A DNA stretch of 39,487 nucleotides from Bacteroidaceae bacterium (GCA_017444005.1 JAFSXQ010000262.1:1-39487); one strand, 5' to 3'. Positions 4,823 to 33,484 are shown, counted from the stretch's first letter. Notes: generated by a model from the sequence alone, not told the origin. Numbers and translations: made by a program.

Positions 4823-6109
4823 TTACAGGTCTTGCGCCAGGCGCAGGCCCACGGTGGGAGCCGTCTCGTCGGGCGACATGTAATGGCGGTGATTGTTGCG
4901 CAGCATCAGTCCGCGGTCCTGGTACGAGCCGCCACGCACGATGCGCACGTAGCCCGTCTCCGGCCCCAAGGGGTTGGCCACGTTATCGGCGGGATAGCGG
5001 TCCAGATAGTCCTGGCACCACTCGGCCACATTGCCGTTCATGTCCTGCAGACCGATGCGCGATGCCTTGCGGCTACCGCAGTCGATGGTCTGGCCCGACA
5101 TGTTGGCCACGTTGTCGGGGCTGGGTTCACCGCTGTAGGTGTCGGAGAGATTGGAGTCGCGGCAGTTGGCGGCAAACTCCCACTCGGCCTCGGTGGGCAG
5201 GCGGAAGCGTGTGTTGCAACGTTCGTTCAGCCGGCGGATGAACTCTTGGCAGTCGTCCCACGAGACGTTCTCCACGGGCAGTGTCGCCCCCTTGTGGATG
5301 GAGGGGTTGCTGCCCATGACGGCCTGCCAGAGGGCCTGCGGCACCTCGGTCTTGCCGATGGCATATCCGCGCAGGGTCACCTGGTGCTGAGGCATGTCCA
5401 GGCTGGCTGTGCTCAGGGCGTTAGGCAGGCGGCGGGCCCCCATCATGAACGAGCCCTGCTCGATGCGCACCATCTCGTAACCGATGCCGTCGAGCGAGAA
5501 ACTGCCCTCGGCCTTCATGTTCACGCGGTAGGTCATGGTCTGCCCCACACGAGCATCGACCTGCGCCGTCTCGTCGTTGTAGCCGCGGGCCTTCAGCGTC
5601 AGGGTATGCTTGCCGTCGGTGGTTTTCACCTTGAATGGTGGCGCGCCCGTTGCCTGCTTGGTGCCGTCGAGGTAAAGGTCGGCCTCCCCGACGTTGGTGT
5701 TCACCACCAGTGTGCCCGTGGGCTCGTTGCCCGTCGCAGGCTTTTGCACGACCAGTTTATAGGTGGTCTTGCTGGCAAGTCCCTGGGGGAACTTATCGCG
5801 GATGTTGAACTTCGGTGGAATGAATCCTTTTGCCTTTATTTCCAACCACTTGGCCTCGTTACACATGTACACCCAATAGTCGCCGTTGTGTTGCTCCACC
5901 TCGCCAACGATGTCGCCCTCGAAGGTAACATCCGGCACCGTTATGCGCACGACGACCAGCGGACAGATTTGTTTGTTGGCATCCTTCCGGGGATGGCTGA
6001 CGGCCAGAATCTCACTGGGGTCGGCATCAAACGACGTGACGACCAGTTGCTGTGCGAAAACCAGCAACGGAGAAAGGAGCAAGAGGAAAGAGAGGAACTG
6101 TCTTCTCAT
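4823..6109 (-). CDS. exported PEGA-domain + formylglycine-generating-enzyme-like (SUMF1/FGE-sulfatase family) protein
   Basis: 428 aa with a signal peptide (MRRQFLSFLLLLSPLLVFAQQ). PEGA-like segment: DLYLDGTKQATGAPPFKVKTTDGKHTLTLKARGYNDE. FGE-family motifs: YAIGKTEVPQALWQAVMG, VENVSWDDCQEFIRRLN, FRLPTEAEWEFAA, NGNVAEWCQD, IVRGGSY. Confidence 0.9.
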   Translation of the reverse strand: MRRQFLSFLLLLSPLLVFAQQLVVTSFDADPSEILAVSHPRKDANKQICPLVVVRITVPDVTFEGDIVGEVEQHNGDYWVYMCNEAKWLEIKAKGFIPPKFNIRDKFPQGLASKTTYKLVVQKPATGNEPTGTLVVNTNVGEADLYLDGTKQATGAPPFKVKTTDGKHTLTLKARGYNDETAQVDARVGQTMTYRVNMKAEGSFSLDGIGYEMVRIEQGSFMMGARRLPNALSTASLDMPQHQVTLRGYAIGKTEVPQALWQAVMGSNPSIHKGATLPVENVSWDDCQEFIRRLNERCNTRFRLPTEAEWEFAANCRDSNLSDTYSGEPSPDNVANMSGQTIDCGSRKASRIGLQDMNGNVAEWCQDYLDRYPADNVANPLGPETGYVRIVRGGSYQDRGLMLRNNHRHYMSPDETAPTVGLRLAQDL

Positions 6110-6124
6110 AATCCCGTTCTCATT

Positions 6125-7102
6125 CTAATTGAAATGGAGATTGTCGATATAGTCGAAACCCTTCTGTACATCGGTGTCCTGCGGCTGCCACGTGCGCACA
6201 AGGATTTGGGGGTGTTCCCGGTCCTTGAAGTCCCACAGCAAGATGACAATGCCCTTGTCCTTATACGTGTTGGTTGCCCACTCCTGGTCGAGGACCACTA
6301 CGTAGAAATTAGGCTTGGCGCCGTGACGCTTGATCTTGTAGCCGTCAAACTCCACGTGCACTTCTCCTGTTTTGGGGTTTGTAAATATCTTACGCAAATT
6401 GGCTAAATATTGAGCCTTAGGTTTGGGATCAAACACGACATCGGTCTGCATTGTTCCTGTCTCGCGCTTCACACGGGTCATCACCTTGCCGGTGACTATC
6501 AAGGCATCGTCGCTGAAGATGTCATCCAACATCTTGATATCTTTCCTTTTATAGGCGTTCTTCAGTTGCGTACAGAAACCGATAATCTCCAAGCGCTCGT
6601 CGGCATCACCAACGTCGAAACCCTCCTTTAGGATGCGCGTGTACTGGTGTTTGTCGATGGAGATGTTGAAGTCGATAATCTTGCCACTCAGGTCGAAGTC
6701 GACTTCCACCTCCTGGTTCACATCGTCGGCATAGGCCTCATCGACGGCCTCCATCTCCACGGGGATGTTGCGCACCTGATACTGATAGACGCGGCCTGCA
6801 CGCTTTAGGGAAAGGCCATGTTCCACGATGTCGTCGTCCAGACAGTGGAAACGGGCGTTTGCCCACAGCGAGGTGAGGCTTTGCGAAGCCATATCGCTGA
6901 TGCCGATACCCGTGAAATTGATGTCTGCTTTCTGGCTCGAGGCCTTGTTGATGGCCGTAAGCAGTCGGGAGAGGTTCGTCTCCATGCGCTGCTTCAGCGT
7001 GGCATTGCGGATGCCATCGGAGATTTCCACATTCACCTGATCTTGTGCGGTTGCGCCCCATGCAAACAGGGCAACCAACAAAGTCAATGCAATCTTTCTC
7101 AT
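6125..7102 (-). CDS. exported protein of unknown function (C-terminal half possibly NTF2-like)
   Basis: 325 aa with a signal peptide (MRKIALTLLVALFAWGATAQDQ). It starts 32 bp after the upstream stop. ERLEIIGFCTQLKNAYKRKDIKMLDDIFSDDALIVTG is reminiscent of SnoaL/NTF2-like domains; this is weak. Confidence 0.7.
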   Translation of the reverse strand: MRKIALTLLVALFAWGATAQDQVNVEISDGIRNATLKQRMETNLSRLLTAINKASSQKADINFTGIGISDMASQSLTSLWANARFHCLDDDIVEHGLSLKRAGRVYQYQVRNIPVEMEAVDEAYADDVNQEVEVDFDLSGKIIDFNISIDKHQYTRILKEGFDVGDADERLEIIGFCTQLKNAYKRKDIKMLDDIFSDDALIVTGKVMTRVKRETGTMQTDVVFDPKPKAQYLANLRKIFTNPKTGEVHVEFDGYKIKRHGAKPNFYVVVLDQEWATNTYKDKGIVILLWDFKDREHPQILVRTWQPQDTDVQKGFDYIDNLHFN

Positions 7103-7134
7103 ATCTTATTCTGTTTTTAGTTTATCCTTACTTA

Positions 7135-7902
7135 TTATTTGGCCAACTGAAACCAGATGGCGGTGTTGGCATCGTAGTTGTCCAACGTGTCGGCGGCCTT
7201 TGTGCGCAAGTTCGTGCGCTCTCCGTCGCCCGGACTGAGCACGGTCCGCAGGTTACCCTGTGCATCGCCGACCAGCAGGTAGCAGGCCGCGGGATTGGTG
7301 CAAGCACTCATGTAGCCCGTACGCTTCACACGATACTCGGCCTTCAGGCGGTTGAGCATGGCCTTGCCCTGTGCCAGGGTTTCGCAGTTCAGCAAGTCCT
7401 GGATGACCTGTTCCTGCCACGAGCCGGCAACCGTCTGAGGCTGGGGCTGTGTACGTGGCTTCGGTTCTGCCAGTACGGTCTTCACTTCAGGTTTCGGTGC
7501 AGGTTTCGGTTCTGCCTTCACCGCCGGCTTAGGTTCGGCTTTGGGTTGGGGAGCAGGCGCCGTTGTCGACAGGACATCCGTCTTCGCAATGTAGACAAAG
7601 ACGCGCGTCTGCTGCCCGCGTGGCATCTGCATCCGTTGCAGTCTGTCGGCATTCTTGGCTATCAGTTCACGCTCCTCGTCCGAGAGTTCGTGCTGCTGTT
7701 GAGCATATTCGCCCATGAAACTTATCAAAAGGTCGCGAGCCATCTCAAAAGCCTTCTCGGCGTCGGCATCGGTGGCCTCGGCATAGATGTAACTTTCGTT
7801 ACGCTTGATGTCGTTGATTTCCTTGCTGGTGTTCTGCGCTACAGCCACCGAACTCATCAAGGCAACAACGACCGACATCATCAGTTTTCTTACGTTCATC
7901 AC
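7135..7902 (-). CDS. exported protein with a central Pro/Lys/Glu/Ala-rich spacer
   Basis: 255 aa with a signal peptide (MMNVRKLMMSVVVALMSSVAVAQN). Its ATG overlaps the upstream stop (ATGA at 7899-7902). Central linker: APAPQPKAEPKPAVKAEPKPAPKPEVKTVLAEPKPRTQPQPQ. Confidence 0.75.
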   Translation of the reverse strand: MMNVRKLMMSVVVALMSSVAVAQNTSKEINDIKRNESYIYAEATDADAEKAFEMARDLLISFMGEYAQQQHELSDEERELIAKNADRLQRMQMPRGQQTRVFVYIAKTDVLSTTAPAPQPKAEPKPAVKAEPKPAPKPEVKTVLAEPKPRTQPQPQTVAGSWQEQVIQDLLNCETLAQGKAMLNRLKAEYRVKRTGYMSACTNPAACYLLVGDAQGNLRTVLSPGDGERTNLRTKAADTLDNYDANTAIWFQLAK

Positions 7903-9023
7903 AATTTTATTTCGTCAAACAAATATTGTACCTTTGAGATTTCCACAAAGGCGTTTAGCCGTGCCTGGACCAATCCTTTGCGCTCCGAGAGTGTGAGCAT
8001 GTCGAAGACGACACGCATCGAATGCAGGTAGCCCATGTCGGGATTCCACATAATCAGTTCACACTTCGCCACGCCATCCGTTTCATCGATGAGTCCGAAA
8101 TAGGGTTTGCAGCCATGATCCAGACAGTAGTTAATCCACTGGTTCAAGCGTACCTGCAAGGTATCGTACTTAAAGCCGTACTTCACCATGCGGATTTCGA
8201 GGTCGTAGTCGTTCTCCACCTGCCCCGTAGTCAGCAGATTGGCAACGCTTTCCTTCATCAGGCGGGTGTTGCAGAGCAGGCGCAGGCTATCCCGTTCGTC
8301 CCGTTCATAGTAACTATCCGAATTTATCTGTGGCAGATAAAATTTCTCGCCAGGCAATATGAAGTAACGCCCCTGCCACGTGGTTTTCAGACGGGCAGAG
8401 TCGGGCACCTCAGCCATGCGTGGTTCGGCACTCCACTGGGCGACTTCGGGCAGAAGCCGCCGTTCCCTCTCTTCCATGTCCGTCCCTGCCAGCAGGTTGT
8501 AGTCGATGGGGAAGTTTATGGCGAAGCGTTCCTCGTCGCCCTTCATCCAGTGCACGGTGTATCGCTTGCCATTCAGGTTCTCGACGGAGACGGCCAGTGT
8601 GGTGTCGGCAGCCACCTGATGCAGGGCGTCCATTTTGCCCCCACGGAAGAAGACGCCATCCTCGTCCAGATGCCGGGCCACACTGCGTTCACGTTGCACG
8701 GGAAGGTCGAGGAACAGCGGATAGCGCTCCACGAAATCAAATGCCGGCGAAGACATTGCCTCGCGCAACTGTTCGGAGAACAACGAATAGCCGATGTGCG
8801 TGACCACGCTGTCGGCCACTACCACAGTGACGGGATGGGCCTTGTACTGCAATAATCCGACATAACGTCCTTCGGGCAGGGTGTCCAATTGTGCCTCGGC
8901 CTGCAGGGCAGTCGCCATACGCTGCAAGAGGTCAGTACGATAGCGGTTTCCCGCCATCGCCTGACCTGTCTGTAGCATCGTGAGCACAAGTGCCCACAGG
9001 ATTATGTGGCGTCGCCCCAGCAT
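7899..9023 (-). CDS. exported protein of unknown function
   Basis: 374 aa with a signal peptide (MLGRRHIILWALVLTMLQTGQAMAG). It starts 9 bp after the stop of the Zn-ribbon gene. No domain recognised. Confidence 0.75.
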   Translation of the reverse strand: MLGRRHIILWALVLTMLQTGQAMAGNRYRTDLLQRMATALQAEAQLDTLPEGRYVGLLQYKAHPVTVVVADSVVTHIGYSLFSEQLREAMSSPAFDFVERYPLFLDLPVQRERSVARHLDEDGVFFRGGKMDALHQVAADTTLAVSVENLNGKRYTVHWMKGDEERFAINFPIDYNLLAGTDMEERERRLLPEVAQWSAEPRMAEVPDSARLKTTWQGRYFILPGEKFYLPQINSDSYYERDERDSLRLLCNTRLMKESVANLLTTGQVENDYDLEIRMVKYGFKYDTLQVRLNQWINYCLDHGCKPYFGLIDETDGVAKCELIMWNPDMGYLHSMRVVFDMLTLSERKGLVQARLNAFVEISKVQYLFDEIKL

Positions 9024-9032
9024 CTCTGTTTA

Positions 9033-9896
9033 TCAAAGACCCGACACGAACTTGCGTGTGCCGTCGGCGAAGCGAATTTCGCCCTGGCGCAACTTGCCGT
9101 TCTCAACCTTGGCATTGGCAATCTTGTCACCGGGATTCACGGTAACAGTCTCACCCGAGGCCTTCTTCAGGTCGATGGTGTAGGTCTTGTTGACGGTGAT
9201 CTCACCACCAATACCGCTCTTGTTACCCGATACGGAACCTTTGTAGGTGCCCCAGCCCAGGTTGATGGTATTACTGCCACCGCCACCTGTAACCTCGGCG
9301 CCGACCCATGCAGCATTGATGGCACTCTCCAATTCATAAATCTTAGCAACATCATCGCTCTCTACGGCCTCGCGCAGCGCTGTGAGCAACGTGTTGATGG
9401 CCTCCTTGGCGTCCTTTTTCAGTTTCTTGTCCTTTTCGGTCAACAGTTTCTCGTTGGCAGCCAGTACCGAGTCGGCACGCTCTTTCACGCGAGCCAGTTC
9501 GGCTGCACGCTCTTCGGCACTGCCCTGCAGAGCCTTCTCGGCAGCCAATCGTTGTGCCTCGGCCTCAGCCATAGCAGCCTCGGCTTCCTGGCGCTGTGTA
9601 TCTGCCTCGGCAGCAGCACGCTCGGCTTCCATCTTCTCCTGCTTTGCCTTCTGGTTCGAATCGTAGATGCTGTAGCCGCCATATCCCAGACCGCCCAGCA
9701 CAACAACTGCAGCAGCAATGATGCCGATGAGTTTGCCGTTAGGTTTGCGGCCACCATCTCCGCCCGTGGGTTTACCCCCAAATGGAATAAGAGGCTTACC
9801 ACAATACTCACACACAAAGTTACTCTTCTCCGCTTCCATTATCTCGTCGCAATGTTCACATTCTTCATTGCGACAAATACCTTTCATTTTTGCCAT
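9033..9896 (-). CDS. Zn-ribbon / single-TM / coiled-coil / MORN-like membrane protein
   Basis: The ORF-track start at 9923 is a TTG; ATG at 9894-9896 gives MAKMKGICRNEECEHCDEIMEAEKSNFVCEYCGKP (CX4CX2C...CX2C zinc ribbon). A TM helix follows (LIGIIAAAVVVLGGLGYGGYSIY), then ~110 aa of Ala/Glu/Lys-rich coiled coil. The C-terminal Gly-rich beta repeats (GWGTYKGSVSGNKSGIGGEITV; ENGKLRQGEIRFADGTRKFV) look MORN-like. Confidence 0.8.
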   Translation of the reverse strand: MAKMKGICRNEECEHCDEIMEAEKSNFVCEYCGKPLIPFGGKPTGGDGGRKPNGKLIGIIAAAVVVLGGLGYGGYSIYDSNQKAKQEKMEAERAAAEADTQRQEAEAAMAEAEAQRLAAEKALQGSAEERAAELARVKERADSVLAANEKLLTEKDKKLKKDAKEAINTLLTALREAVESDDVAKIYELESAINAAWVGAEVTGGGGSNTINLGWGTYKGSVSGNKSGIGGEITVNKTYTIDLKKASGETVTVNPGDKIANAKVENGKLRQGEIRFADGTRKFVSGL

Positions 9897-10097
9897 AATT
9901 TGTTTCCTATTTACTAATATCAATTTATTCGTATCATATCACGACTTTTGAGATGCGAGAGGCGTGGACAACAGAGGGGCCCTACAATTGGGACATACGA
10001 AATCGTCAGGTGATACTTCAACCACGATACAAAACAATTCGCATGAATCATTTATACACTTACCTCTTACCAGTTTTCGCATCATCACACTATTCAA

Positions 10098-13000
10098 TTA
10101 AAGGTCTTTAAGTTCAGCATTTATAATCTCCACTGCTAATGCCTTATACTCGTTATACACAGGGCTAAACTGGTTGCCTTCGCACATGGTAGGCAGTATG
10201 AGTTGGTTGACAACGCCTCCTAACGCCTTGCGCACCTCAGCCTTCTGGTCATTGCTCCGTGCCTGTTTCGTCAGTTCCTTAGCCACCTGTGCCTTCAGTT
10301 GCTGCAGTTTTCTATAGTCTTGCGCCAATGCATTCAGGCAACCTTCAAAGTTCTTACCAATCTTCACCCAACTGTCACCAAACACATCATCGGGGATATT
10401 CATCGCATAGAAGCGTTCACCCGTGGTGGGATCCTGCTGTGGTTGGATTTGATTGAGTGCAAAGGCCAGCATGAGAGGTTTCTTGGCATCAGCAAAGTTC
10501 TCCTTTGAGTCTTTCTCGAACAAAGCGGGCAGAGCCTCCTTGAAACTCTCTGTATGCAACACCATACGGTTCAGATCCTTCTCGGGAGCAGCCAGCAGTT
10601 GGTCGTATTTCTGCTTCAGTGTAGTCAGGTTTGCCAAATAACGAAGAGGGAAACCGGAGTTGGCACACACGATTACAATCTGGTTAGTCTTGTAGTTCTC
10701 CGAGAGGTCTGCATCAGGTGACGGAACAAAGCCAGGTATCGTGTTTTGGAACACCTGGAGAAGACGATTCTTGAACTCAAGTGTAGCACCCTCTGCTCTA
10801 GGCATTGCAACCTGTACCATGCTCTGCATAACAGCAGGTGTGCCAGCAATGACCTTACTGCGTTCCTCTGCATTGAACTGTACATAGGACTGCGCCCATC
10901 CAACAGCCTGTTTGACAAAGGCTTCCATCTTCTCCTCCGTGTTCAGTTCGTTCTTCAATTTATCGAGAATATTCACGCCCACCATCTTCATCATCGGGTC
11001 GTTCTTTGCCGAATCTTCCATTGCCATACGGGCATTCTTGGTACAAACATCGAGTACAATGTCTATAGCCGTCTCGTAATCGGTATTTGCATATAAGTTG
11101 GCAAAGGTTCGTTCTCCTTCTTCTCCCAATCCAGCAATCATGCGAGTACGGATTTCCGCAGCATTGCCACTCTGGTTCTCAAAATTAATAGAGTATTGTT
11201 TGGCTAGTGCATGCACGCGTTCGGGGTCATACTTCTTGACGATGCCATCCTCTTGGGCTTCACTTGTCCGGCACTTGTTTCCTGCCTGTTTCGTAACCTC
11301 TGTAAGAATGTCGTCCATTTCCTTCTTCATCGCCTGTATGCCCTCAATCATACTACCCATTTCTATGATGAGTTCCTGAAGAAGCAAAGTCGCATACTTG
11401 TATGCATCAATGCGTGTGGCTGTGATATAATAGTTACACTTAGCTGTCTTGTACGTATTGAATATCTGTGTCGGCGACACAAAGGGATTCAGATTGGGCC
11501 ACCCAAGTTTTCCCCACTCGCGGTTGGCATCATCGATAGCGACCTGCTGTCCGTCTCTCTCTTCCTCTAACCTAGCAATTTGCTGCTTGAAAGCGGTGAT
11601 GCGATCCTGACAATCCTTGCGCATAAGTTGGGCATACTTTTCAATCTGCAAAATACTCTTGCCCTCCTTGCCTCCTGCTGCCCACTGGTCGAAGAGTATT
11701 TTCTCGATGTGCCTACGCAGATGACGGGCATAGCCCTTGAGTTCTTGTTGTTGTATTTCGTAGAATTTCTTCACACCATGAGCACGGAAACTATTCTCAT
11801 AGTAATCGTCCACTAACTTGGTGAACTCAGCCAGCCACAGTTTCTTCTCATACTGACTCTGCACCAATGCGGCATCCTGTTGTGTTCGAGTTTCCCACGT
11901 GGTGGAGAAGTCCTTCCACTTCTTAGTATTCGCACTGTCGATGATGGGTTTGGCCAAAGTCAAATAAGAATTCGAGAGTTTGTATTGCTCGCGATTCTTC
12001 ACATTCTTTATCTCATCGGCATATCCCGAACCAACTTCCTCGATGGAGCATTCGCCATAGCCTACGCCCTCCTGCCAGAGGTTGTAGGTAAGTTGGCGTG
12101 TGGCCTGTATGGCATAACTATAGGACATGTATTCATCTATCTCCGTTTCGGGGTACTCGATGCGTGTAATACCGAAAGAAAGGAACTTGCGGCTACGATT
12201 GTTCTCCCCATTCAAGTCCTGTTCTGGAGCAGCCCCGTCATTCTCACAGCCCACCAGGCGAGACATCTTACCTGCACTACCATTCATATTGGCTACGACA
12301 ATAGTCTGGAACATAAAGTCTGCCACAGAAGCAGGTAACTGTGTCCCCAAATCCAGAATTTTGCCAGCCTCATTTACATTGCTATAGATATAGGCGGCCT
12401 CGAATGATTCACCTTCCAACAAACGTTTCACCTCCTGCGTATAAACATCTTTTTCTCCTGTGACATCTAAGGGGTGATATTTACCTACGCTTACAGCATT
12501 CAGTTCCTGCAAAGCGGCATATCCGTTGGCCTGATAGAAACCGCTGTCGTGGTCGCTATAGACCATAACGCTCTCGGGAATGTACAGGAAAAGGCGAATT
12601 TTGAAGGCTTTGGTGCCTTCATTATATGGATATTTCTTACGTATTTGGGATAGAACATCTATGATGGAGCCCGAACCCGTACCACCAGCAAGACCTGCAC
12701 AGATATGGAATGTGACATCCTGATCGTTCGAGTCCTGCTGCAAACGAGTCACAGCACTATGGATGACATTGTTCAGATTATCGCGACTAACGGAGTCACC
12801 CAGGTTGTTGGCAACGAGCACACGGCCCAATCTACGACGCTGGCCGCCGATACCAGCCGAAATCAAAGGCCCCATGTGTCGGTCCATCAGTTGCTTGTCA
12901 GTATCGCTGATAAAGGACTGTAAACCAGGATACATACTTAAGTTTTGAAGCACGTTGGAATTAATGCCGTTGATATTCACCTTCTGTGCTTCACCCAGAT

Positions 13001-13193
13001 GGACACTCTTTCCTATCACCTTCCAGCCTGTACGATCGTTCAGATCTGCTGGCGAAGAGTCCACATAAACATAATCCAAGTGAACACCACGACCAGGGTC
13101 GTTGCTGCGAAACTCTTCGTACACTCTTTTACGCAGTTCGCGGAGCACCTTGCCTCCCGTACCGCCTAATCCGATAATCAAATGGTTTGACAT
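10098..13193 (-). CDS. giant tubulin/FtsZ-superfamily GTPase (tubulin-like, Tubulin_2/FtsZl-type) with a ~650-aa C-terminal extension
   Basis: 1031 aa.
- N-terminal G-loop: IIGLGGTGGK (aa 6-15).
- YVDSSPADL, comparable to the FtsZ NTD segment.
- T3-like: SAGIGGQRRRLGR.
- Canonical T4 tubulin signature: CAGLAGGTGSGSIIDV (aa 165-180, nt 12669-12695 for GLAGGTGSG).
- No signal peptide or TM segment.
- The remainder is helical-looking with no domain I recognise. Confidence 0.85.
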   Translation of the reverse strand: MSNHLIIGLGGTGGKVLRELRKRVYEEFRSNDPGRGVHLDYVYVDSSPADLNDRTGWKVIGKSVHLGEAQKVNINGINSNVLQNLSMYPGLQSFISDTDKQLMDRHMGPLISAGIGGQRRRLGRVLVANNLGDSVSRDNLNNVIHSAVTRLQQDSNDQDVTFHICAGLAGGTGSGSIIDVLSQIRKKYPYNEGTKAFKIRLFLYIPESVMVYSDHDSGFYQANGYAALQELNAVSVGKYHPLDVTGEKDVYTQEVKRLLEGESFEAAYIYSNVNEAGKILDLGTQLPASVADFMFQTIVVANMNGSAGKMSRLVGCENDGAAPEQDLNGENNRSRKFLSFGITRIEYPETEIDEYMSYSYAIQATRQLTYNLWQEGVGYGECSIEEVGSGYADEIKNVKNREQYKLSNSYLTLAKPIIDSANTKKWKDFSTTWETRTQQDAALVQSQYEKKLWLAEFTKLVDDYYENSFRAHGVKKFYEIQQQELKGYARHLRRHIEKILFDQWAAGGKEGKSILQIEKYAQLMRKDCQDRITAFKQQIARLEEERDGQQVAIDDANREWGKLGWPNLNPFVSPTQIFNTYKTAKCNYYITATRIDAYKYATLLLQELIIEMGSMIEGIQAMKKEMDDILTEVTKQAGNKCRTSEAQEDGIVKKYDPERVHALAKQYSINFENQSGNAAEIRTRMIAGLGEEGERTFANLYANTDYETAIDIVLDVCTKNARMAMEDSAKNDPMMKMVGVNILDKLKNELNTEEKMEAFVKQAVGWAQSYVQFNAEERSKVIAGTPAVMQSMVQVAMPRAEGATLEFKNRLLQVFQNTIPGFVPSPDADLSENYKTNQIVIVCANSGFPLRYLANLTTLKQKYDQLLAAPEKDLNRMVLHTESFKEALPALFEKDSKENFADAKKPLMLAFALNQIQPQQDPTTGERFYAMNIPDDVFGDSWVKIGKNFEGCLNALAQDYRKLQQLKAQVAKELTKQARSNDQKAEVRKALGGVVNQLILPTMCEGNQFSPVYNEYKALAVEIINAELKDL

Positions 13194-13228
13194 AGTATTT
13201 GTTCGTTTAAGTTTTGTTGATTCACGTT

Positions 13229-13810
13229 TCAGAATACATCTTCAGCCCTTGAGAACGTAGACACACGGCCTGAGGAGTATCCGCCCACGCCTATACCAAA
13301 ATGCTCACAAGTCATGTAGGCCCCTACCCCACCTGCTATCAGGAACAGCAGGGCCCAGAAGATGCGCCAATGGATGAACGAGGCAATGCTGTCTCGCACT
13401 GAGGCGGCTACCATGTGGGGGACCTGCTCCACGGTATGACCGGCCAGGGCAGCACCGTCGATGTAGGAGGCCAGGAAGGGATAGTTACCCGTGAGGGACG
13501 AGACCAGTTCGCTGGCGTCGCTCTGGCTGAGATTGTCCTTCAGTATGCCCGTCTGCGATGACAGCAGACTGGCGGCCTGAGCCTCTACGTCGTTCACCAG
13601 ACTGCGCACGCGCAAGGCACCGCAGAAGAGGGTTGTCTGAATGAAAAGCAGAATGAAAGCCGCGCCAAGGGCCACGTAGCCTACAGGGGCAAGACGGCGG
13701 TCAGGTGAAAGGACACGCACCAAGAGGAAGGCAAGAAGTACCCCCCCCACTGCCATCAGCAAGCCCCAGGCGAGGCTTGAGAAGGAATATGATACCAGTG
13801 TCCACCACAT
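13229..13810 (-). CDS. small polytopic membrane protein (first gene of the tubulin-like operon)
   Basis: 193 aa with at least three hydrophobic helices (LAWGLLMAVGGVLLAFLLV; VGYVALGAAFILLFIQTTLFCGAL; IFWALLFLIAGGVGAYM). Its stop lies 35 bp upstream of the tubulin-like start. No family recognised. Confidence 0.7.
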   Translation of the reverse strand: MWWTLVSYSFSSLAWGLLMAVGGVLLAFLLVRVLSPDRRLAPVGYVALGAAFILLFIQTTLFCGALRVRSLVNDVEAQAASLLSSQTGILKDNLSQSDASELVSSLTGNYPFLASYIDGAALAGHTVEQVPHMVAASVRDSIASFIHWRIFWALLFLIAGGVGAYMTCEHFGIGVGGYSSGRVSTFSRAEDVF

Positions 13811-13850
13811 AACAACTACAAATTTGGCCTTTTACGGCATAGTTTGCCTA

Positions 13851-13858
13851 CAAAGTTA
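13851..13858 (-). promoter_or_regulatory. candidate Bacteroidota -7 promoter box (TAACTTTG) for the tubulin-like operon
   Basis: The minus strand reads TAACTTTG, matching the TAnnTTTG consensus. It lies about 41 nt upstream of the ATG at 13810 and just downstream of the terminator of the preceding operon. Confidence 0.4.
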
Positions 13859-14000
13859 AAAAAGAAAATCATACGATACAACTTTTTGTCGCAGTTTTTG
13901 TCTACATTTGCCTCATTTCGCACAATTTGCAGGGGAAGGGCTTCGCATGAAGGCAAGAGGGGGACTATACATCATTATATTGCGCACGCACGTGCATAGG

Positions 14001-14049
14001 GAAAAAGAGACCCGCAGCCTGAGAGATGGGCTGCGGGTCTCTTTTTTTG
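14001..14049 (-). terminator. rho-independent (bidirectional-looking) terminator after the PUL operon
   Basis: Perfect 14-bp stem AGAGACCCGCAGCC (14006-14019) / GGCTGCGGGTCTCT (14029-14042) with a 9-nt loop. It is flanked by an A-run on the left and a T7 run on the right, and sits 21 nt after the SusD stop at 14070. Confidence 0.75.
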
Positions 14050-14069
14050 TATCCGGGGTGGAGAGGACA

Positions 14070-16325
14070 TCAGTTGGCGGTGGGGCCAATCTTGTCCTTC
14101 CACTGAATGTACCAGTTGTCGCGGTTGAGCAACTTGGCGCCGACGGTGGCATCGCGCTGCGAAATGGGAGTGGCCAGACGAGACGGGTCGTTGTACCACA
14201 GGGCGCGGCGCATGAGGTCGTAGAAGCGGTTGCCCTCGTAGGCGAGTTCCAGAGCCTGCTCGTCGAGGATGAGACGGTCGATGAGGTCCTGCTCGGTGCG
14301 GACGACATTGGGACTGGCGTAGGCAGCACGGTACCAGGTGTCGTAGGCGGCGAGGAAGTCGTCGAGGCGACCGTTGTAGGCATCAAGGTCGGCCAGATAG
14401 ACGGCATCCACGGCATTCCACTGGGCCTGGTAGTTGGGAACGGTCTCGGTGATGTAGACGTTGTAAGCGCCAACGGAGTCCTTCTCGACGTAGTTCTTAT
14501 AGGCACGTTCGAGAGCCGATGCGGTGAGCGTGGGGTTGATGGAGGCATAAACGTCCCTTTCGACCATCTCGTTGGGATACTTGTCCCAGGTGGAGGGCTT
14601 CTTCACCTCGCGCGGTGCACTGGGATAGTCGTAGTCGGTGCGGGCGGGACGAACACCAATGGCCTCTTCCTTGGCAAACGGATAGTCGGTGCTGTCGGGG
14701 GTGGCCAGCGGAGCATAGTTGGCATTCTTGAAAGGCAGGCCCGAACCGCGAGCGTGGATGCCCAGCATGTTGCAGTTGTCGGTGCTGCTGCGCAGACTGG
14801 GTTCACGACCCAGCACGACGCCCGAGGGCGAAAGCGTGACAGAATAACTCTGGGCATAGGGCAGGAAGTCGGTGGTGTTGAAGTCGAAGTACTGGATGAA
14901 GGCCGAGTCCTGAGCCGATGTGTAGTAGGGCTGCACCTCGTTCTCGATGACGGTGTTGGAGAGGCCCATCGTCAGGATCTGACGGGCAAAGCGGGGATAG
15001 CCGGCATAGTTGAGGGCCTCAGCCAGGCGCAGGTAGATCTGAGAAGCACGGTAGATGCCGATGTGCTGGTAGGCGTGCTTGTAGATGGACTGGTAGTCGA
15101 CGTCCTGCGAGTTGAGGTTGAAGGTGCGCTGGTAGTAAGTGTCCTGATAGCGCAGGTCGCCCAGATAGCCGCGGTTGATCTGGTCCTCGGTGAACTTGTC
15201 TGCCGTCACCTTCACGGTGAATCCGAATCCGTCCTGGTCGACGTAGTCCTGGGCCTGGCTCAACTGGAGCAGGAGTTTGCTGGGCTGGATGCTGGCCTCC
15301 TCGTAGTCACCGTCGTCGGTGGAGCGGGTATTGTAGAGCATGCGCAGTTCGTTGTAGTAGCCGTCGGCAGCGGCCGAGTCCATGGGGATGAACGTGATGG
15401 CCGGCTGGCGAGCCGTTCCCCAGTCGTTGCCGAAGCCGTAACTGAGCGAGCCGCTGGGCTGGCGGTAGGTGCCGTTGGTGAGGGTCTGCGTGGACCATTC
15501 CACACGGTCGTAGCCGGTGGTCAGGGGGCGCTTGCCGCTCTGGTCCCAGACGATGTAGTCGTAGTAGGCCTTAGCAGCCTGCTTGGCCAGTTCGGGATCC
15601 TGACGCTTGGCAGCCAGCCACAGATAGAGGTCGCCGGTGACGATCTGCGTGGGGAAGAAGCAGAGTTGCGGGTCGATGTGGGCATCGAAGGTGCCATAGT
15701 CGGGATAGGCCTTGCCGTAATAGGGCTTCAGGTCCTGGATGAAGTAGTCGCAAATCTGGTCGAGGTCGTACAGCGGATACTTGGCATCGGACTGGAGTTT
15801 CGTCACCACGGGCTCCGTGATGAACGGCACACGTCCGTAGAGGAGCACCATCTGCAGATAGGTCCAGGCGCGGATGCTGTGCACCTGTGCAATCTCGGAT
15901 GCGAAGTAGTATATGCCGCGGTTGGTGTTTCCGGCCAGCGAGTCGGCATGGGCCAGGAAGTAGTTGCAGTTGTTGATGACGGCATAGTAGTCGCGCGGCA
16001 CGTTGTAGGCATTGTCGTCGTCGACGGTGAGGTCGGCAATGCTCTTGAGGTCGGTGGTGGCATTGCTGCGAACCTCCACGAGGTCGGCCCGCAGTTCGCC
16101 AAACAGATTGTTGCGCACGGCGATGCTCTGCAGTTTGTTGAGAATGCCCACGACGGACGTCACCGTGTCGGCGGCATTGCCAATCATGTGGTTGTCGGCA
16201 TATATCACGTACTCATTGCCTTTGTCGAGCATGTCCTCGCAGGATGTGACACAGAGGGCTCCGAGAAGACAGAGGGCACAGAGGAGTGCGCTTGTCTTAT
16301 TATACATATACTTGATTGTGTTCAT
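14070..16325 (-). CDS. SusD/RagB-family nutrient-binding outer-membrane lipoprotein (large, 751 aa)
   Basis: Lipoprotein signal ...LGALCVTSCEDML. SusD-like segments include AQVHSIRAWTYLQMVLLYGRVPFI and IYRASQIYLRLAEALN. It lies immediately downstream of a SusC gene. An alternative start at M7 (16307) is possible. Confidence 0.9.
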   Translation of the reverse strand: MNTIKYMYNKTSALLCALCLLGALCVTSCEDMLDKGNEYVIYADNHMIGNAADTVTSVVGILNKLQSIAVRNNLFGELRADLVEVRSNATTDLKSIADLTVDDDNAYNVPRDYYAVINNCNYFLAHADSLAGNTNRGIYYFASEIAQVHSIRAWTYLQMVLLYGRVPFITEPVVTKLQSDAKYPLYDLDQICDYFIQDLKPYYGKAYPDYGTFDAHIDPQLCFFPTQIVTGDLYLWLAAKRQDPELAKQAAKAYYDYIVWDQSGKRPLTTGYDRVEWSTQTLTNGTYRQPSGSLSYGFGNDWGTARQPAITFIPMDSAAADGYYNELRMLYNTRSTDDGDYEEASIQPSKLLLQLSQAQDYVDQDGFGFTVKVTADKFTEDQINRGYLGDLRYQDTYYQRTFNLNSQDVDYQSIYKHAYQHIGIYRASQIYLRLAEALNYAGYPRFARQILTMGLSNTVIENEVQPYYTSAQDSAFIQYFDFNTTDFLPYAQSYSVTLSPSGVVLGREPSLRSSTDNCNMLGIHARGSGLPFKNANYAPLATPDSTDYPFAKEEAIGVRPARTDYDYPSAPREVKKPSTWDKYPNEMVERDVYASINPTLTASALERAYKNYVEKDSVGAYNVYITETVPNYQAQWNAVDAVYLADLDAYNGRLDDFLAAYDTWYRAAYASPNVVRTEQDLIDRLILDEQALELAYEGNRFYDLMRRALWYNDPSRLATPISQRDATVGAKLLNRDNWYIQWKDKIGPTAN

Positions 16326-16374
16326 AATTCCTTGTTCTTTATTATGAATTATGCATTATGAATTATGCATTGAA

Positions 16375-19300
16375 TTACAGGTTAATCTTCACGCCAAGGT
16401 GGAAACTGCGTCCCTGGGACAGGAGACCGCGGTCGATGCCCTGGGACAGCACGCTGTTGGACATGGAGAACTCGGGGTCGGTGCCCAGATACTTGGTGAA
16501 CGTCAGGAGGTTGTTGGCCTGGCCCCAGACGGTGATACCCTGGATGTAGGTGTTGTTGATGGGCAACTTGTAACTGAGGGTCAGCGTCTTCAGGCGCAGG
16601 TACGAGGCATCCTCAATCCAACGGTCGCTGAAGCGGCTGTTGCCCATGGGGTCGGCGTATGTGGCCTTGGGTATATCGGTCACCTGCCCCTCGTGAGTCC
16701 AGCGGTTCAGCATGGCTGTCGACTGGTTCATGAAGCGGCTGCCCGACTCGAGTTGCTGACGCATGTAGTTGTAGACTTCGCCGCCCAGCGAGTAGTTGAA
16801 GTTGACGTCGAGGGTCAGGTGCTTCCAACTGAGCGAGGTGAAGATGTTACCGTAGATGTCGGGCGTGGCATCGCCAATGATGGTGCGGTCGCGCTCATCG
16901 ATGCGGCTGTCGCCATTGAGGTCGAGGAACTTCACGTCGCCGGCGCCGTAGTAGGTCTTGGCACCCGTCTCGTCCTGCACGTACAGGCCCGAGGCCTTGG
17001 CCTCCTCCGATGTGCTGAAGACACCGTCGGTGCGGTAGCCGTAGAACGAGTTCACGCTGCCGCCCACCTGGCTGCGGATGGTGGCCCCCAGGATGTCGGT
17101 ATCGAGGTAGCGCTGGTTGTCGGGCAGCGAGGTCAGTTCGTTCACGTAGTGACCCATGCTGGCTCCGACCGTCCAGTTCCAGTTCTTGCGGGACAGGAGA
17201 TGGGCCGTGGCCGTGACGTCGAAGCCCTGGTTCTTCAGCGAGCCGCCGTTGCTCCAGTTATAGTCGAGACCGCTGACGAAGCCCAGTTCCTGGAAGGTCA
17301 GCAGGTGGTCGGTCCACGAGTGGAAATAGTTGAAGTTGATGCCGAGGCGGTTGTTCAGGCCCTTGAACTCGATGCCGGCATTGAAGCGCTTCGTGGTCTC
17401 CCACTGCAGTTCGGTGTTGCCGATGTTGCGCAGGGTCAGGCCAGCCACCTTGTTCAGGAACATGTTGCTGGTGAAATAGGTGCGCGATGCGTCGTAGACC
17501 ATGTTGTCGTTACCGCTCATGCCGAAGCCGGCTGTCAGTTTCAGGTAGTCGATGCCGGCGACGTCGAAGAACTTCTCGTTCGAAGCCACCCAACCGGCCT
17601 GGATGCTGGGGAATACGCCCCAGACAACGCCGCCGCACTTGAAACCGCCCTTGGCCTCACGGCCGAACTGCGAGTTGGACTCGATGGCCAGGGCACCCTC
17701 CAGATAGTAGCGGTTGGCATAGTTGTACTGTGCCTGGCCGTACCAGGTGATGGTGGCCATGTTCTCGCTGGTACCCGTAGAGGTTTTGTTCGATGTGCTG
17801 CCGATTGAGGGAATCTTGTCGTTACCGCTGTTCTTCTCGTTGTAGCCGTGCTGGGTGTTCAGCGAATAACTTTCGTTGATGTAGCGGAAGCCGCCCTGCA
17901 GGTGGATGTTGTGTCCCTTGTAGGAGTTCGTCCAGTCGAGTTTGGTGTCGCTGTTCACGGTGTTCTGCTTGCCATACTGCGAACCTATCTCGTTCTCCAT
18001 CTCGTTCTGCAACGCTGCCACGTAGTAACTGGGCACACCGTTGATGGGCACGTAGTACTTCTCGTTAGTGTTCAGCGACGTGTAACTGAACATCTCGCTC
18101 AGGTAGAGATGCTTGTTGAACTGGTACTTGGGCGTCACGATGAGGTTGACGTAGGAGTTGTCGAAATAGTTCTTGTTCTCAGCCGTTCCGTAGTGGTTGA
18201 TGGCAACGGGGTTGGCCAGACGGTAGTTGCTGGTACGCATGTTGGAGAGTTCGTCCAGGTAGTCCTCATCGACGATGTCGAGGTGGTTGTTGGTGATGTA
18301 ACCGATGCGGTTCACCCAGTCACCGACGAAGGAGTACGGACTCAGCATGGGACTCTTGGCAGCAGCCAGGAAGTTGGTGCTGGTGATGGACTTCTGGTCG
18401 TAGGTGTCAGGGGCACCCGTATCCATGAGTTTACGGGTCTGGTTGGTGTAGGCAGCGTCGAAACTCATCGACAGGGCCTTCGTAATCTTGATGTCGGTGT
18501 TGAAGCGGATGTTCAGGCGGTTGAAGTTGTTCTCCTTCAGCACGCTGTTGTCGTGGGTGTAGCCCACCGACAGCATGTAGTTGGCAATGTCGCCACCGCC
18601 CTGCACGCTCAGGCCGTAGTTCTGGGTCACGGCCTCGCTGTAGAGGTGGTCGGCCCAGTTGGTATTGTTGTTGTACTTGGGAGCCCAATACTCGTTGTTG
18701 AGGAACTTGAAACTGTTGGCCTGCGTTCCGGTGCTCTGCAGGAGGCCCGAGGCGTAGGTCTTGTACTGGCTGCCGTTCATCACGTCGTACATGCTGGGCA
18801 GCAGTTCCACGCCCACGTTGACCGAGGCCTCGATGCGCGTGGCCTGCGACGTATTGCGCTTCGTCTTGATGAAGATGACGCCGTTGGCACCCTTGGCACC
18901 ATAGAGGGCCGTACCGTTGGACATCACCTCGACGCTCTCCACGTCATTGGCGTTGATGTTGGTGAGCACGTCGTTGAAGTAACCGGTATGAATCATCTGG
19001 CGGCCATACTGCTGGTCGATGATGACACCGTCCAGCACGATGAGGGGCTGCGAGTTGCTCTGCAGCGAGTTCACGCCGCCGATGTTCATGTAGTTGCCCA
19101 CGGCCAGGGCACCGCTGCGTGCCACCGTGTGGACGTTGGCAGCCAGTTGGTTGCCCACCTCCGACGTGATGTTACGGGCAGCGGTGAACTCCGTAGAGCC
19201 CGTCCGCACGTTGTTCAGCACATTGTCGTCGGCGCGATACAGGGGACGGGCAGCGTCGCTCTGCATCACTATCTCGCGCAACTGGCCCGACTTGTTCAGG

Positions 19301-19626
19301 CCCACGCGAACCATATTGTAACCGGGGATGGTGACCGTGACGGCGCTGCTGTAGAGGGGAACCTGCATCTTGAACGTACCGTCCTCCTCGGTCAGGGTCG
19401 AATAGCCTTCGCCGGCAACGGACTGCACCAGCACACCGACCAGCGGTTCGCGGGTAGCCTGGCTGACGACACGTCCCTGTATGGTGCGTGTCGGCTCCTG
19501 CTTCTTCGCCTTGCGAACCTGAACCACAGACGCATTCTCCTGCACGGTTTCCTCTTCCTCCTGAGCGAAGAGGCTCAGGGGCGAAACCATCAAGAGGGAT
19601 AGGAATAGAATATTTATGTTTTTCAT
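16375..19626 (-). CDS. SusC/RagA-family TonB-dependent outer-membrane transporter
   Basis: 1083 aa. Signal peptide, then a carboxypeptidase-regulatory-like domain (IQGRVVSQATREPLVGVLVQSVAGEGYSTLTEEDGTFKMQVP). Plug motifs (VLDGVIID, ALYGAKGANGVIFIKTKR) and a long beta-barrel region follow. No STN domain precedes the CarbopepD-like domain. Confidence 0.95.
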   Translation of the reverse strand: MKNINILFLSLLMVSPLSLFAQEEEETVQENASVVQVRKAKKQEPTRTIQGRVVSQATREPLVGVLVQSVAGEGYSTLTEEDGTFKMQVPLYSSAVTVTIPGYNMVRVGLNKSGQLREIVMQSDAARPLYRADDNVLNNVRTGSTEFTAARNITSEVGNQLAANVHTVARSGALAVGNYMNIGGVNSLQSNSQPLIVLDGVIIDQQYGRQMIHTGYFNDVLTNINANDVESVEVMSNGTALYGAKGANGVIFIKTKRNTSQATRIEASVNVGVELLPSMYDVMNGSQYKTYASGLLQSTGTQANSFKFLNNEYWAPKYNNNTNWADHLYSEAVTQNYGLSVQGGGDIANYMLSVGYTHDNSVLKENNFNRLNIRFNTDIKITKALSMSFDAAYTNQTRKLMDTGAPDTYDQKSITSTNFLAAAKSPMLSPYSFVGDWVNRIGYITNNHLDIVDEDYLDELSNMRTSNYRLANPVAINHYGTAENKNYFDNSYVNLIVTPKYQFNKHLYLSEMFSYTSLNTNEKYYVPINGVPSYYVAALQNEMENEIGSQYGKQNTVNSDTKLDWTNSYKGHNIHLQGGFRYINESYSLNTQHGYNEKNSGNDKIPSIGSTSNKTSTGTSENMATITWYGQAQYNYANRYYLEGALAIESNSQFGREAKGGFKCGGVVWGVFPSIQAGWVASNEKFFDVAGIDYLKLTAGFGMSGNDNMVYDASRTYFTSNMFLNKVAGLTLRNIGNTELQWETTKRFNAGIEFKGLNNRLGINFNYFHSWTDHLLTFQELGFVSGLDYNWSNGGSLKNQGFDVTATAHLLSRKNWNWTVGASMGHYVNELTSLPDNQRYLDTDILGATIRSQVGGSVNSFYGYRTDGVFSTSEEAKASGLYVQDETGAKTYYGAGDVKFLDLNGDSRIDERDRTIIGDATPDIYGNIFTSLSWKHLTLDVNFNYSLGGEVYNYMRQQLESGSRFMNQSTAMLNRWTHEGQVTDIPKATYADPMGNSRFSDRWIEDASYLRLKTLTLSYKLPINNTYIQGITVWGQANNLLTFTKYLGTDPEFSMSNSVLSQGIDRGLLSQGRSFHLGVKINL

Positions 19627-19632
19627 GTCGTA

Positions 19633-21441: not shown

Positions 21442-21494
21442 AAACTTTGAATTACGAAATGCGAAATACGGAATTTCAATTTTCAATTTTCAAT

Positions 21495-25497: not shown

Positions 25498-25515
25498 ATC
25501 GTTGTTCTCCTTTCT

Positions 25516-33106: not shown

Positions 33107-33139
33107 ATCTTTTTTCTGACTAATTTACAAATTCGGCTG

Positions 33140-33147
33140 CAAAGTTA
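33140..33147 (-). promoter_or_regulatory. candidate -7 promoter box (TAACTTTG) for panB
   Basis: The minus strand reads TAACTTTG, 34 nt upstream of the panB ATG at 33106. Confidence 0.4.
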
Positions 33148-33426: not shown

Positions 33427-33484
33427 GTGATTCGTTAATGCAATCTGCTAAGAATTGTGTACTTTTGCAACTCAATATCACAGA

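Follow-up and report, generated by a model that had tools for sequence, protein, structure and literature searches.

The 39,487-nucleotide (nt) stretch of DNA from a Bacteroidaceae bacterium analysed here (GCA_017444005.1 JAFSXQ010000262.1:1-39487, hereafter the window) encodes a 1031-amino-acid (aa) protein of the uncharacterised FtsZl1 (Tubulin_2) family. Judged from a structure model, the protein is predicted to be a GTPase of the tubulin/FtsZ fold, to which a helical or coiled-coil stalk and a C-terminal domain peculiar to the family are permanently fused. This architecture is not new, since every element of it is already part of the description of FtsZl1 published in 2010, and the protein is a further member of that family (Makarova and Koonin 2010, PMC2875224). 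The novelty is limited to the subfamily context and to two testable leads, a Zn-ribbon adaptor encoded beside the GTPase and the conserved residues E317 and E324. With regard to function, we regard it as probable that FtsZl1 forms a GTP-dependent, membrane-tethered trans-envelope assembly coupled to periplasmic proteins.

An earlier note, made from the sequence alone, had described a tubulin-like protein of 1031 aa, more than twice the size of FtsZ, with quoted nucleotide-binding motifs and neither a transmembrane (TM) segment nor a signal peptide. The reading frame was recovered with an ATG start, and the motifs IIGLGGTGGK, SAGIGGQRRRLGR and CAGLAGGTGSGSIIDV stand exactly at residues 6-15, 112-124 and 165-180. 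The T4 signature AGGTGSG at residues 169-175 agrees with the pattern [SAG]GGTG[SAT]G, and the comparison of size is correct with respect to the 383 aa of Escherichia coli FtsZ. The highest mean Kyte-Doolittle hydropathy of any 19-residue segment was 1.2. FtsZl1 is accordingly expected to have neither a TM segment nor a signal peptide.

The protein matched the Pfam family PF13809 (Tubulin_2, 'Tubulin like') with 172.4 bits (gathering cut-off 27, E-value 2.2e-50) over residues 5-364 and profile positions 1-354 of 356. The same family was matched by 42 out of 42 diverse relatives. The classical Tubulin/FtsZ family PF00091 reached 21 bits in the query, below its threshold of 33, and was touched by 33 of the 42 relatives. 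NCBIfam and PADLOC hold no model for FtsZl1. PF13809 is the 'FtsZ-like' group of Makarova and Koonin 2010 (PMC9871819), and the FtsZl1 prototype is Huta_2051 with 1051 aa (PMC2875224). These authors described an FtsZ-like N-terminal domain with inserts between T1 and T4, followed by a coiled coil and a C-terminal domain, and they could identify neither T6-H7 nor the C-terminal FtsZ/tubulin domain by sequence. They proposed a role in envelope or membrane remodelling (Makarova and Koonin 2010, PMC2875224). The layout of ~1000 aa with an N-terminal domain, a helical or coiled-coil part and a C-terminal domain was found again in the AlphaFold model and in relatives of ~1000-1060 aa, along with a Gly-rich T1 (GLGGTGG, residues 8-14) and a T4 signature that are conserved family-wide.

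A word-indexed search returned more than 1700 homologs, with one cluster being 100% identical to the query. The best 120 of these homologs are 58-100% identical, 1027-1045 aa long and either unnamed or called 'hypothetical protein'; the sole genus named among them is Prevotella. Searching 1.84 billion cluster representatives with HMMER yielded 1153 clusters (50% identity) at E ≤ 1e-3 and 324 at E ≤ 1e-30. Most of the listed matches had 990-1090 aa and gave one alignment from query residue 1-3 to ~900-1030, down to 27% identity. Proteins with 66-80% identity are encoded in 14 species-representative genomes from Prevotella, Palleniella intestinalis, Palleniella muris and Bacteroidaceae. Few branches of the tubulin/FtsZ superfamily are as divergent as FtsZl1. 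The organism known as 'B. capillosus' is today placed among the Firmicutes. It and B. caccae are the Bacteroidetes-labelled entries in the part of the 2010 supplements that was retrieved, and of these two B. caccae is the only true member of the phylum; in the same part its FtsZl1 is given with 913 aa and different neighbours.

An AlphaFold2 model of full-length FtsZl1 was built from a 66-sequence alignment and had a mean predicted local distance difference test (pLDDT) value of 86.8 and a predicted template modelling (pTM) score of 0.69. A Foldseek comparison with the PDB returned 249 matches at E ≤ 0.001, and the following statements rest on the best 50 of them. All 50 belong to the tubulin superfamily (alpha-, beta- and gamma-tubulin, CetZ1/2, OdinTubulin and BtubA) with probability 1.0, E-values of ~3e-6 to 7e-5 and ~360-380 columns in sensible alignments. 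The target-normalised template modelling scores were 0.37-0.48 at 12-14% identity. In a viral structure library, phage tubulin, PhuZ and FtsZ were matched by the N-terminal domain only. The N-terminal domain is thus predicted to have the tubulin/FtsZ GTPase fold. PF13809 and Foldseek bear out that the protein is a GTPase of the tubulin/FtsZ superfamily and carries T1 and T4 loops, and the same two results exclude another P-loop or Rossmann family, the outcome that the earlier note had named as speaking against it. PDB sequence searches with the protein or a 66-sequence profile gave only non-significant matches to the T4 region of beta-tubulin, and sequence comparison thus reveals no relative of known structure.

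Conservation was assessed in 121 full-length relatives with 25-72% identity to the query (median 29%), among which 70 positions are at least 90% conserved. These positions include G8 and G10-G14 of T1, G167-G175 and D179 of T4, Q118, R120, R121, G123 and R124 of the T3-like motif, P206, the helix Y220-A233 and N274; the tetrad N272, V273, N274 and E275 is invariant in the close clade. T1 and T4 are thus conserved nucleotide-binding loops, and the T3-like and T6-like motifs probably represent the T3 and T6 loops. Nine genuine FtsZ sequences, the one from E. coli being a 100% match to database records, were aligned by hhalign with a 102-sequence profile of the FtsZl1 N-terminal domain. In local mode the segment T1-S2 alone was aligned with confidence (E 1e-3, probability 21%). 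Under relaxed settings the T3-like motif fell on FtsZ GAGANPEVGR and T4 on GGGTGTG, both with low posterior. No position after ~H5 was aligned with any confidence, an outcome that reproduces the 2010 result (PMC2875224); H7 and T7 were not located, and the global mode produced junk. Human beta-tubulin (sequence verified against the PDB) aligned in the T4 region only (E 6.6e-5). The T3 label given earlier to SAGIGGQRRRLGR is plausible, not secure: the profile alignment to FtsZ places the motif on the T3 loop at low confidence, and the alignment to beta-tubulin has another register. In the model, residues 112-117 have a pLDDT below 50 and a helix follows at 120-132.

The tail of ~650 aa had been described as a helix-rich extension of no recognisable domain, which agrees with the absence of Pfam and NCBIfam matches in the query and of Pfam matches in the 42 diverse relatives. 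It cannot be seen as an add-on to tubulin, as the earlier note had done. Relatives with as little as 25-27% identity align over the whole length of the tail; it is therefore integral to the FtsZl1 family. In the model, helices at 429-506 are followed by a hairpin (514-561 and 574-640), a helical part (657-766) and an alpha/beta part (790-1027). The helical middle region is the counterpart of the 'coiled coil' in the published FtsZl1 layout. When residues 641-1031 were modelled alone, the confidence (pLDDT 74.8, pTM 0.39) was lower than in the full-length context, suggesting that this region packs against the rest of the protein. A Foldseek search of the PDB with the isolated model, which is only moderately confident so that a similar fold may have been missed, gave no match at E ≤ 1e-3 (best E 0.3). 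Conserved positions of the C-terminal region among the 121 relatives include R682, F697, P798, R851, Y863, E882 and P889.

The Zn-ribbon–TM adaptor encoded downstream of FtsZl1 is the strongest functional lead. Its start at ATG 9896 and its four cysteines were set by alignment with orthologs; hydropathy places the TM segment at residues ~56-74 counted from this start (65-83 in the TTG-started open reading frame, ORF). The MORN-like domain of the window's protein was recognised by eye and has no Pfam match of its own. A metagenome scan provided 79 loci with FtsZl1 identities of 29-80%, and 63 of them had enough downstream DNA to be judged. By automated criteria, 59 of the 63 loci contain a same-strand ORF downstream of FtsZl1 with the pattern C-x(1-8)-C...C-x2-C and a subsequent hydrophobic segment. 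The Zn-ribbon motif starts at a median of 50 nt past the end of the FtsZl1 match. Three of the four misses show by eye a variant Cys/His-rich N-terminus and a TM segment, which raises the pairing to ~62 of 63 loci. The sole informative locus lacking even a variant Zn-ribbon–TM ORF after FtsZl1 (L064, FtsZl1 identity 50%, positions 7187-8600) may be a rearranged or decaying copy, since its downstream sequence looks unrelated. In 47 aligned adaptors the four cysteines and one leucine are the only invariant positions. Past the TM segment the adaptors are modular (MORN 14, Big_2 10, OmpA 4, PBP-like 3, TPR 3, FGE-sulfatase 1).

Even in Paraburkholderia, where the homolog has 1005 aa and 26.5% identity over 94% of the length, a Zn-ribbon–TM–TPR gene lies downstream. 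In that locus (Paraburkholderia sp. PREW-6R, NZ_CP155075.1, positions 5770-13501) genes for a Gly-zipper protein, a caspase (Peptidase_C14) and a DUF4384 protein are located upstream of the FtsZl1 homolog; the partner set differs from that of the window, the adaptor principle is alike, and the record carries almost no annotation. The earlier note had suggested that the tail might dock neighbouring Zn-ribbon or membrane proteins. Docking of these neighbours, by the tail or by the protein in general, gains indirect support from the pairing of the genes across 26-80% FtsZl1 identity, which is a matter of adjacency only. The Zn-ribbon–TM protein probably ties FtsZl1 to the cell envelope.

Between the two genes the window contains an additional 52-aa ORF. 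It resembles the Zn-ribbon–TM protein (BLASTP E 6e-7) and the family of these proteins (hhalign probability 97%, E 5e-11), and is a TM-less paralog of the next gene's Zn-ribbon. The ORF is absent from the 80%-identical relatives, in which the Zn-ribbon–TM gene starts ~25-50 nt after FtsZl1. A soluble protein that competes for the docking site or regulates it is one conceivable role; otherwise the ORF may be left over from a duplication.

FtsZl1 is part of a tightly packed cassette on the minus strand with intergenic gaps of 35, 0, 42, 9, -4, 32 and 15 nt in gene order. The six-gene core consists of a membrane protein, FtsZl1, the Zn-ribbon–TM protein and three secreted proteins (Table 1). Gene order is kept across the loci of the 14 genomes, in which the neighbours, Zn-ribbon module aside, are only 21-43% identical. 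It is also kept in nearly all metagenome loci whose FtsZl1 identity is 35% or more. Orthologs of the upstream membrane protein are present in 12 of the 14 loci, the other two contigs being cut inside FtsZl1 and having no upstream DNA, and orthologs of the 374-aa protein in all 14 (23-35% identity). For the 325-aa protein, eight of nine orthologs match DUF4440 weakly. The 374-aa and 255-aa proteins have no Pfam relatives, and profile searches gave no PDB match for any of the three secreted partners. The distal 428-aa protein matches PF03781 (E 1.4e-35) and PF08308 (E 3.7e-8). NCBIfam returned low-complexity matches only for the cassette partners, and PADLOC only spurious coiled-coil matches on the adaptor linker.

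Hidden Markov models (HMMs) of the partners were built from the window's proteins and their orthologs and run on the metagenome loci. At 35% FtsZl1 identity and above, the 374-aa protein was detected in 36 of 38 loci, the 255-aa protein in 33 of 35, the 325-aa protein in 31 of 32 and the upstream membrane protein in 36 of 40. At 25-34% identity the window's partners are present in only about one third of the loci. A Pfam census of 90 further neighbours in related loci found mostly nothing; the matches were Sel1 (4), PEGA (4), CarboxypepD_reg (4), Gly-zipper (4), NTF2-like (3), FGE-sulfatase (2), OmpA (1), DUF4384 (1) and Endonuclease_NS (1). Distal PEGA/FGE, PEGA/TPR, Sel1 and Gly-zipper proteins of other loci resemble the 428-aa protein of the window. 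Neither the window cassette nor the 90 neighbours contain a vWA, GTPase or kinase domain detectable with Pfam. A vWA/GTPase/OmpA/kinase operon, which is typical of the family and not strictly defining, was thus not found here. The six-gene cassette lacking vWA or GTPase partners typifies the subfamily, whose named members are Bacteroidales (Prevotella, Palleniella, Bacteroidaceae).

Table 1. Genes of the cassette and features of FtsZl1 in the window
Feature	Position	Strand	Residues	Remarks
Upstream membrane protein, first cassette gene	13229..13810	-		193 aa, three hydrophobic segments; 35 nt from FtsZl1
FtsZl1 (Tubulin_2 family) gene	10098..13193	-		3096 nt, ATG start, 1031 aa, cytoplasmic
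N-terminal tubulin/FtsZ-fold GTPase domain (predicted)	12102..13181	-	5-364	family-specific inserts; PF13809 and Foldseek
T1 loop IIGLGGTGGK	13149..13178	-	6-15	confidently aligned to FtsZ T1 (hhalign)
T3-like loop and helix start SAGIGGQRRRLGR	12822..12860	-	112-124	
S4 strand and T4 signature CAGLAGGTGSGSIIDV	12654..12701	-	165-180	aligned to beta-tubulin GGGTGSG
T6-like NVNE	12369..12380	-	272-275	right after predicted strand S6; assigned by topology alone
Predicted core helix (H7 position) and loop, candidate T7 equivalent	12204..12341	-	285-305, 306-330	loop with E317, E324
Helical middle region	11274..12053	-	381-640	long hairpin 514-561 / 574-640; pLDDT mostly >90
C-terminal helical and alpha/beta region	10101..11273	-	641-1031	no known relative
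52-aa ORF, standalone Zn-ribbon module	9939..10097	-		no TM segment; adjoins FtsZl1 stop codon; third-codon-position GC content 0.42
Zn-ribbon–TM protein	9033..9896	-		287 aa from ATG 9896; Zn-ribbon (C8, C13, C29, C32), Gly-rich linker, TM segment, charged linker, MORN-like periplasmic domain
Secreted protein, DF-x-ERY motif	7899..9023	-		374 aa, signal-like N-terminus; motif conserved; no known domain
Secreted protein, Pro/Lys-rich linker	7135..7902	-		255 aa, 4-nt overlap with upstream gene; no known domain
Secreted protein, weak NTF2-like (DUF4440/Cds6_C) domain	6125..7102	-		325 aa
Secreted PEGA and FGE-sulfatase protein	4823..6109	-		428 aa, variable distal member
S1			3-9	model secondary structure
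T1			8-15	model topology
H1			10-28	model
S2			37-45	model
Disordered insert			48-69	model
S3			70-73	model
Helical insert			~38 aa after S3	model
Flexible loop, 'T3' motif			112-117	model, pLDDT <50
Two helices			120-132, 140-155	model
S4			160-167	model
T4			168-175	model
H4			171-187	model
S5			199-204	model
Helix			219-235	model
S6			266-270	model; followed by T6-like NVNE 272-275
21-residue helix, H7 position			285-305	model
Loop after putative H7			306-330	model
Small unit			331-380	model; strands 331-333, 337-346, helix 349-369, strands 372-374, 378-380

The GC content at third codon positions (GC3) is 0.53 in FtsZl1, 0.60 in the Zn-ribbon–TM gene, ~0.70 in the secreted trio and 0.68 in the upstream membrane protein gene. 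The range of 0.42-0.70 in the cassette core lies below that of the flanking genes (0.80-0.86), suggesting a core of horizontal or mosaic origin, with FtsZl1 being the least ameliorated gene; the PEGA/FGE-sulfatase gene (0.82) is host-like. A 259-nt spacer (13811-14069) and a hairpin terminator of the SusD gene (~13990-14040) separate the cassette from the SusC/SusD block. This block (14070-31799, minus strand) lies directly upstream of the cassette, encodes a SusC/SusD-like pair, a second TonB-dependent receptor and two fasciclin-domain proteins, and resembles a polysaccharide-utilisation locus. In the spacer, TAACTTTG is found ~40-50 nt before the ATG of the first cassette gene. It resembles TAnnTTTG, the -7 promoter motif of Bacteroidetes. 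A scan for sigma-70 promoters and terminators, with a consensus not suited to Bacteroidetes, gave no more than the shuffled expectation.

On the other side of the cassette, 2.5 kb beyond its last gene, positions 241-2364 (minus strand) encode a 707-aa VapE-like protein with a BT4734-like N-terminal part and DUF5906, a primase/helicase type typical of integrated mobile elements; a weak relative occurs upstream in one related locus (L012), on the opposite strand. A low-GC island at 33000-35100 (0.45-0.46 versus ~0.58) contains a DUF3800 gene (33455-34255, plus strand) and a short ORF with DUF1016_N only (34567-35085, plus strand) that looks truncated. The island is possibly the remnant of a mobile or defence element.

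In the proposed mechanism, FtsZl1 would bind GTP and self-associate, either head to tail with the E317/E324 loop replacing T7 or via the coiled-coil stalk. The cytoplasmic Zn-ribbon of the single-pass adaptor would recruit it to the inner membrane. A link from the assembly to the periplasm, the cell wall or the outer membrane would then be made by the exchangeable periplasmic domain of the adaptor (MORN in the window; Big_2, OmpA, TPR or PBP elsewhere) along with the fast-evolving secreted partners. The resulting scaffold would be comparable to FtsZ on its ZipA tether, yet serve envelope remodelling or envelope-triggered signalling and not division. The predicted topology supports this picture, FtsZl1 having no TM segment or signal peptide and its partners having a TM segment or a signal-like N-terminus, as do the cell-wall or surface-type domains of the distal partners (PEGA, Sel1, OmpA, Gly-zipper). 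E317 and E324 are at least 90% conserved among the 121 relatives and lie in the loop right after the putative H7. In the model this is the topological position of T7, which makes them candidate T7 equivalents, and the second domain looks reduced rather than absent.

Several points weigh against the tethered assembly. FtsZl1 contains no NxDxx(D/E) motif and could not be reliably aligned by sequence to the T7 of FtsZ. Pfam found no FtsZ_C or Tubulin_C match in the query or in 42 diverse relatives, and what follows the putative H7 in the model is no more than a reduced beta-alpha-beta-beta unit. Because a canonical T7 and an activation domain are not detectable and this unit is reduced, head-to-tail polymerisation with GTPase activation is unproven in FtsZl1. 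The candidates E317 and E324 are assigned to the T7 position by the order of secondary structure elements, not by coordinates that would relate them to a subunit interface, and the docking of FtsZl1 on the Zn-ribbon is deduced solely from gene adjacency. The calls of TM segments and signal peptides were made by simple hydropathy or by eye, and those of ORFs and TM segments in related loci are heuristic. Furthermore, the searchable literature yielded no experimental study of any FtsZl1/Tubulin_2 protein. A bolder form of the proposal is doubtful. It holds that the cassette is an undescribed trans-envelope machine whose GTPase polymerises via the E317/E324 loop and the stalk on the Zn-ribbon adaptor, and that the pair of FtsZl1 and Zn-ribbon–TM protein is the subfamily's ancestral two-component core across phyla. 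If true, such a machine would couple GTP-driven assembly to periplasmic sensing or surface remodelling, e.g. vesiculation or anti-phage envelope defence, in gut Bacteroidales.

With respect to the biological role, the cassette might instead be a conflict system directed against phages or competitors, or a sensor of envelope damage, of the kind proposed by Kaur, Burroughs, Iyer and Aravind (2020). Periplasmic proteins would sense an invader or damage, with FtsZl1 as the NTP-dependent thresholding assembly that sets off an effector or dormancy; such a role is compatible with membrane-tethered assembly. In Firmicutes and Actinobacteria, GAP1-N2 conflict systems include tubulin plus coiled-coil or alpha-helical proteins (Kaur et al. 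2020, eLife, PMC7159879), and the domains listed there, PEGA, Sel1, OmpA, FGE-sulfatase ('FGS'), NTF2 and TPR, recur among the partners. The partners evolve fast: in the loci of the 14 genomes they share only 21-43% identity, leaving out the Zn-ribbon module, compared with 66-80% for FtsZl1. Peptidases or nucleases occur near some homologs (caspase and DUF4384 in Paraburkholderia, trypsin, Endonuclease_NS, and a cysteine protease in B. caccae), the GC3 of the cassette is atypical and the VapE-like mobile-element gene is nearby. These four features, partner evolution, domain types, peptidase or nuclease neighbours and composition, favour conflict or sensing over envelope remodelling. However, periplasmic and surface proteins often evolve fast for reasons other than defence, the conserved six-gene core has no obvious toxic effector, and the search of phage and plasmid sequences gave one weak phage match and one match in the plasmid collection. 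GAP1-N2 systems are defined by DO-GTPases with N-terminal Zn-ribbons, GAP1, an FNIII-repeat protein and usually vWA (PMC7159879). The Pfam census of cassette and neighbours contained no GTPase, FNIII, vWA or MoxR partner, GAP1 being without a model in the libraries used, and no cassette protein had a meaningful PADLOC match. The lack of defining components and of any meaningful PADLOC match argues against filing the cassette as a conflict system, and we consider the conflict role unlikely, if conceivable.

Other explanations concern the protein itself. FtsZl1 might not polymerise and might act as a GTP-regulated switch or as a dimerising mechanochemical protein of the dynamin or GBP type, in which the stalk does the work and the tubulin-like domain binds and slowly hydrolyses GTP. 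The absence of a canonical T7 and activation domain, the reduced unit predicted after the putative H7 and the large helical stalk or hairpin modelled behind the GTPase, as in large membrane-remodelling GTPases, all fit this idea. We nevertheless find it rather improbable, as all characterised proteins of the tubulin/FtsZ superfamily form filaments (authors' response, PMC2875224) and E317 and E324 are as conserved as the GTP-binding loops. Their conservation is hard to explain otherwise and thus favours a catalytic or interface role. Very little speaks for a conventional cytoskeletal homolog, i.e. a second division FtsZ or a DNA-segregation motor of the TubZ/PhuZ type on a mobile element, beyond the tubulin fold, the atypical composition and the VapE-like gene. 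FtsZ_C, a C-terminal peptide and a dcw/ftsA neighbourhood were not found; the neighbours are SusC/SusD and secreted-protein genes. Nor was a plasmid or phage location, a TubR-like adaptor or a centromere, all conserved partners being membrane or secreted proteins. The viral structures matched the N-terminal domain alone, and tblastn gave one weak phage match (22% identity, E 6e-4) and one plasmid/chromid match. A phage or plasmid origin was rejected on these single matches. A merely coincidental resemblance of motifs in a protein of another P-loop or Rossmann-type NTPase family would agree with the sub-threshold PF00091 score and the non-significant PDB sequence searches, but can hardly be reconciled with the PF13809 match, the 50 best Foldseek matches, the 33 relatives that touch PF00091 and the alignment to the T4 region of beta-tubulin; its probability is practically nil.

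The interest of FtsZl1 lies in its cellular role and in whether it can polymerise with neither a canonical T7 nor an activation domain. The present analysis provides handles in the form of the candidate catalytic residues E317 and E324 and the near-universal Zn-ribbon–TM partner as the obvious putative tether. The compact six-gene cassette is found in Prevotella and Palleniella, including cultured species, and has neither of the components regarded as typical, vWA and GTPase. Should the tether model be true, FtsZl1 would represent a second, independent tubulin-fold polymer on a dedicated single-pass adaptor, here wired to the periplasm.

Compared with known systems, the window's protein is like the FtsZl1 of Makarova and Koonin (2010) in Pfam family, length class and three-part layout, in the failure of T6-H7-T7 and the activation domain to align by sequence, and in having membrane and secreted proteins as operon partners. 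The operons described then typically encode vWA proteins, a diverged GTPase, Ser/Thr kinases and OmpA-like proteins (PMC2875224). The first three are missing from the window cassette, and in their place the subfamily has a fixed set made up of a membrane protein, the Zn-ribbon–TM adaptor and three secreted proteins. Described as 'mostly alpha-helical' in 2010, the C-terminal region is here predicted to be partly alpha/beta. The GAP1-N2 systems share with the cassette a tubulin domain that continues into a coiled-coil or alpha-helical domain at the C-terminus, a proposed membrane-proximal role and the recurrence of Zn-ribbons, TM segments and extracytoplasmic domains of the PEGA, NTF2 and FGS type in the partners. 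The Zn-ribbon is located on the GTPase there and on the TM adaptor here.

CetZ, the eukaryotic and Odinarchaeal tubulins and BtubA are the best structural matches for the N-terminal ~370 residues. They have in common with FtsZl1 the tubulin-type T4 AGGTGSG, and the T4-H4 region resembles beta-tubulin. FtsZl1 differs from them by its low identity and template modelling scores, large inserts, a second domain that looks reduced in the model and the lack of Tubulin_C. TubZ and PhuZ are likewise divergent bacterial tubulin-fold GTPases with structural matches in the viral library. They have ~300-450 aa, make their filament contacts with a C-terminal tail and are paired with DNA-binding adaptors on plasmids or phages, whereas FtsZl1 is chromosomal and paired with envelope proteins. 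In comparison to FtsZ, FtsZl1 has no FtsZ_C, C-terminal tail peptide or dcw context and possesses 650 extra residues. The window's adaptor differs from the FtsZ tethers ZipA and FtsA in combining a Zn-ribbon, the putative binding module, with a periplasmic ligand- or wall-binding domain. Common to both systems is a cytoplasmic tubulin-fold GTPase with T1 and T4 loops and no anchor of its own, encoded in the window beside a single-pass membrane protein with a cytoplasmic module that may bind it.

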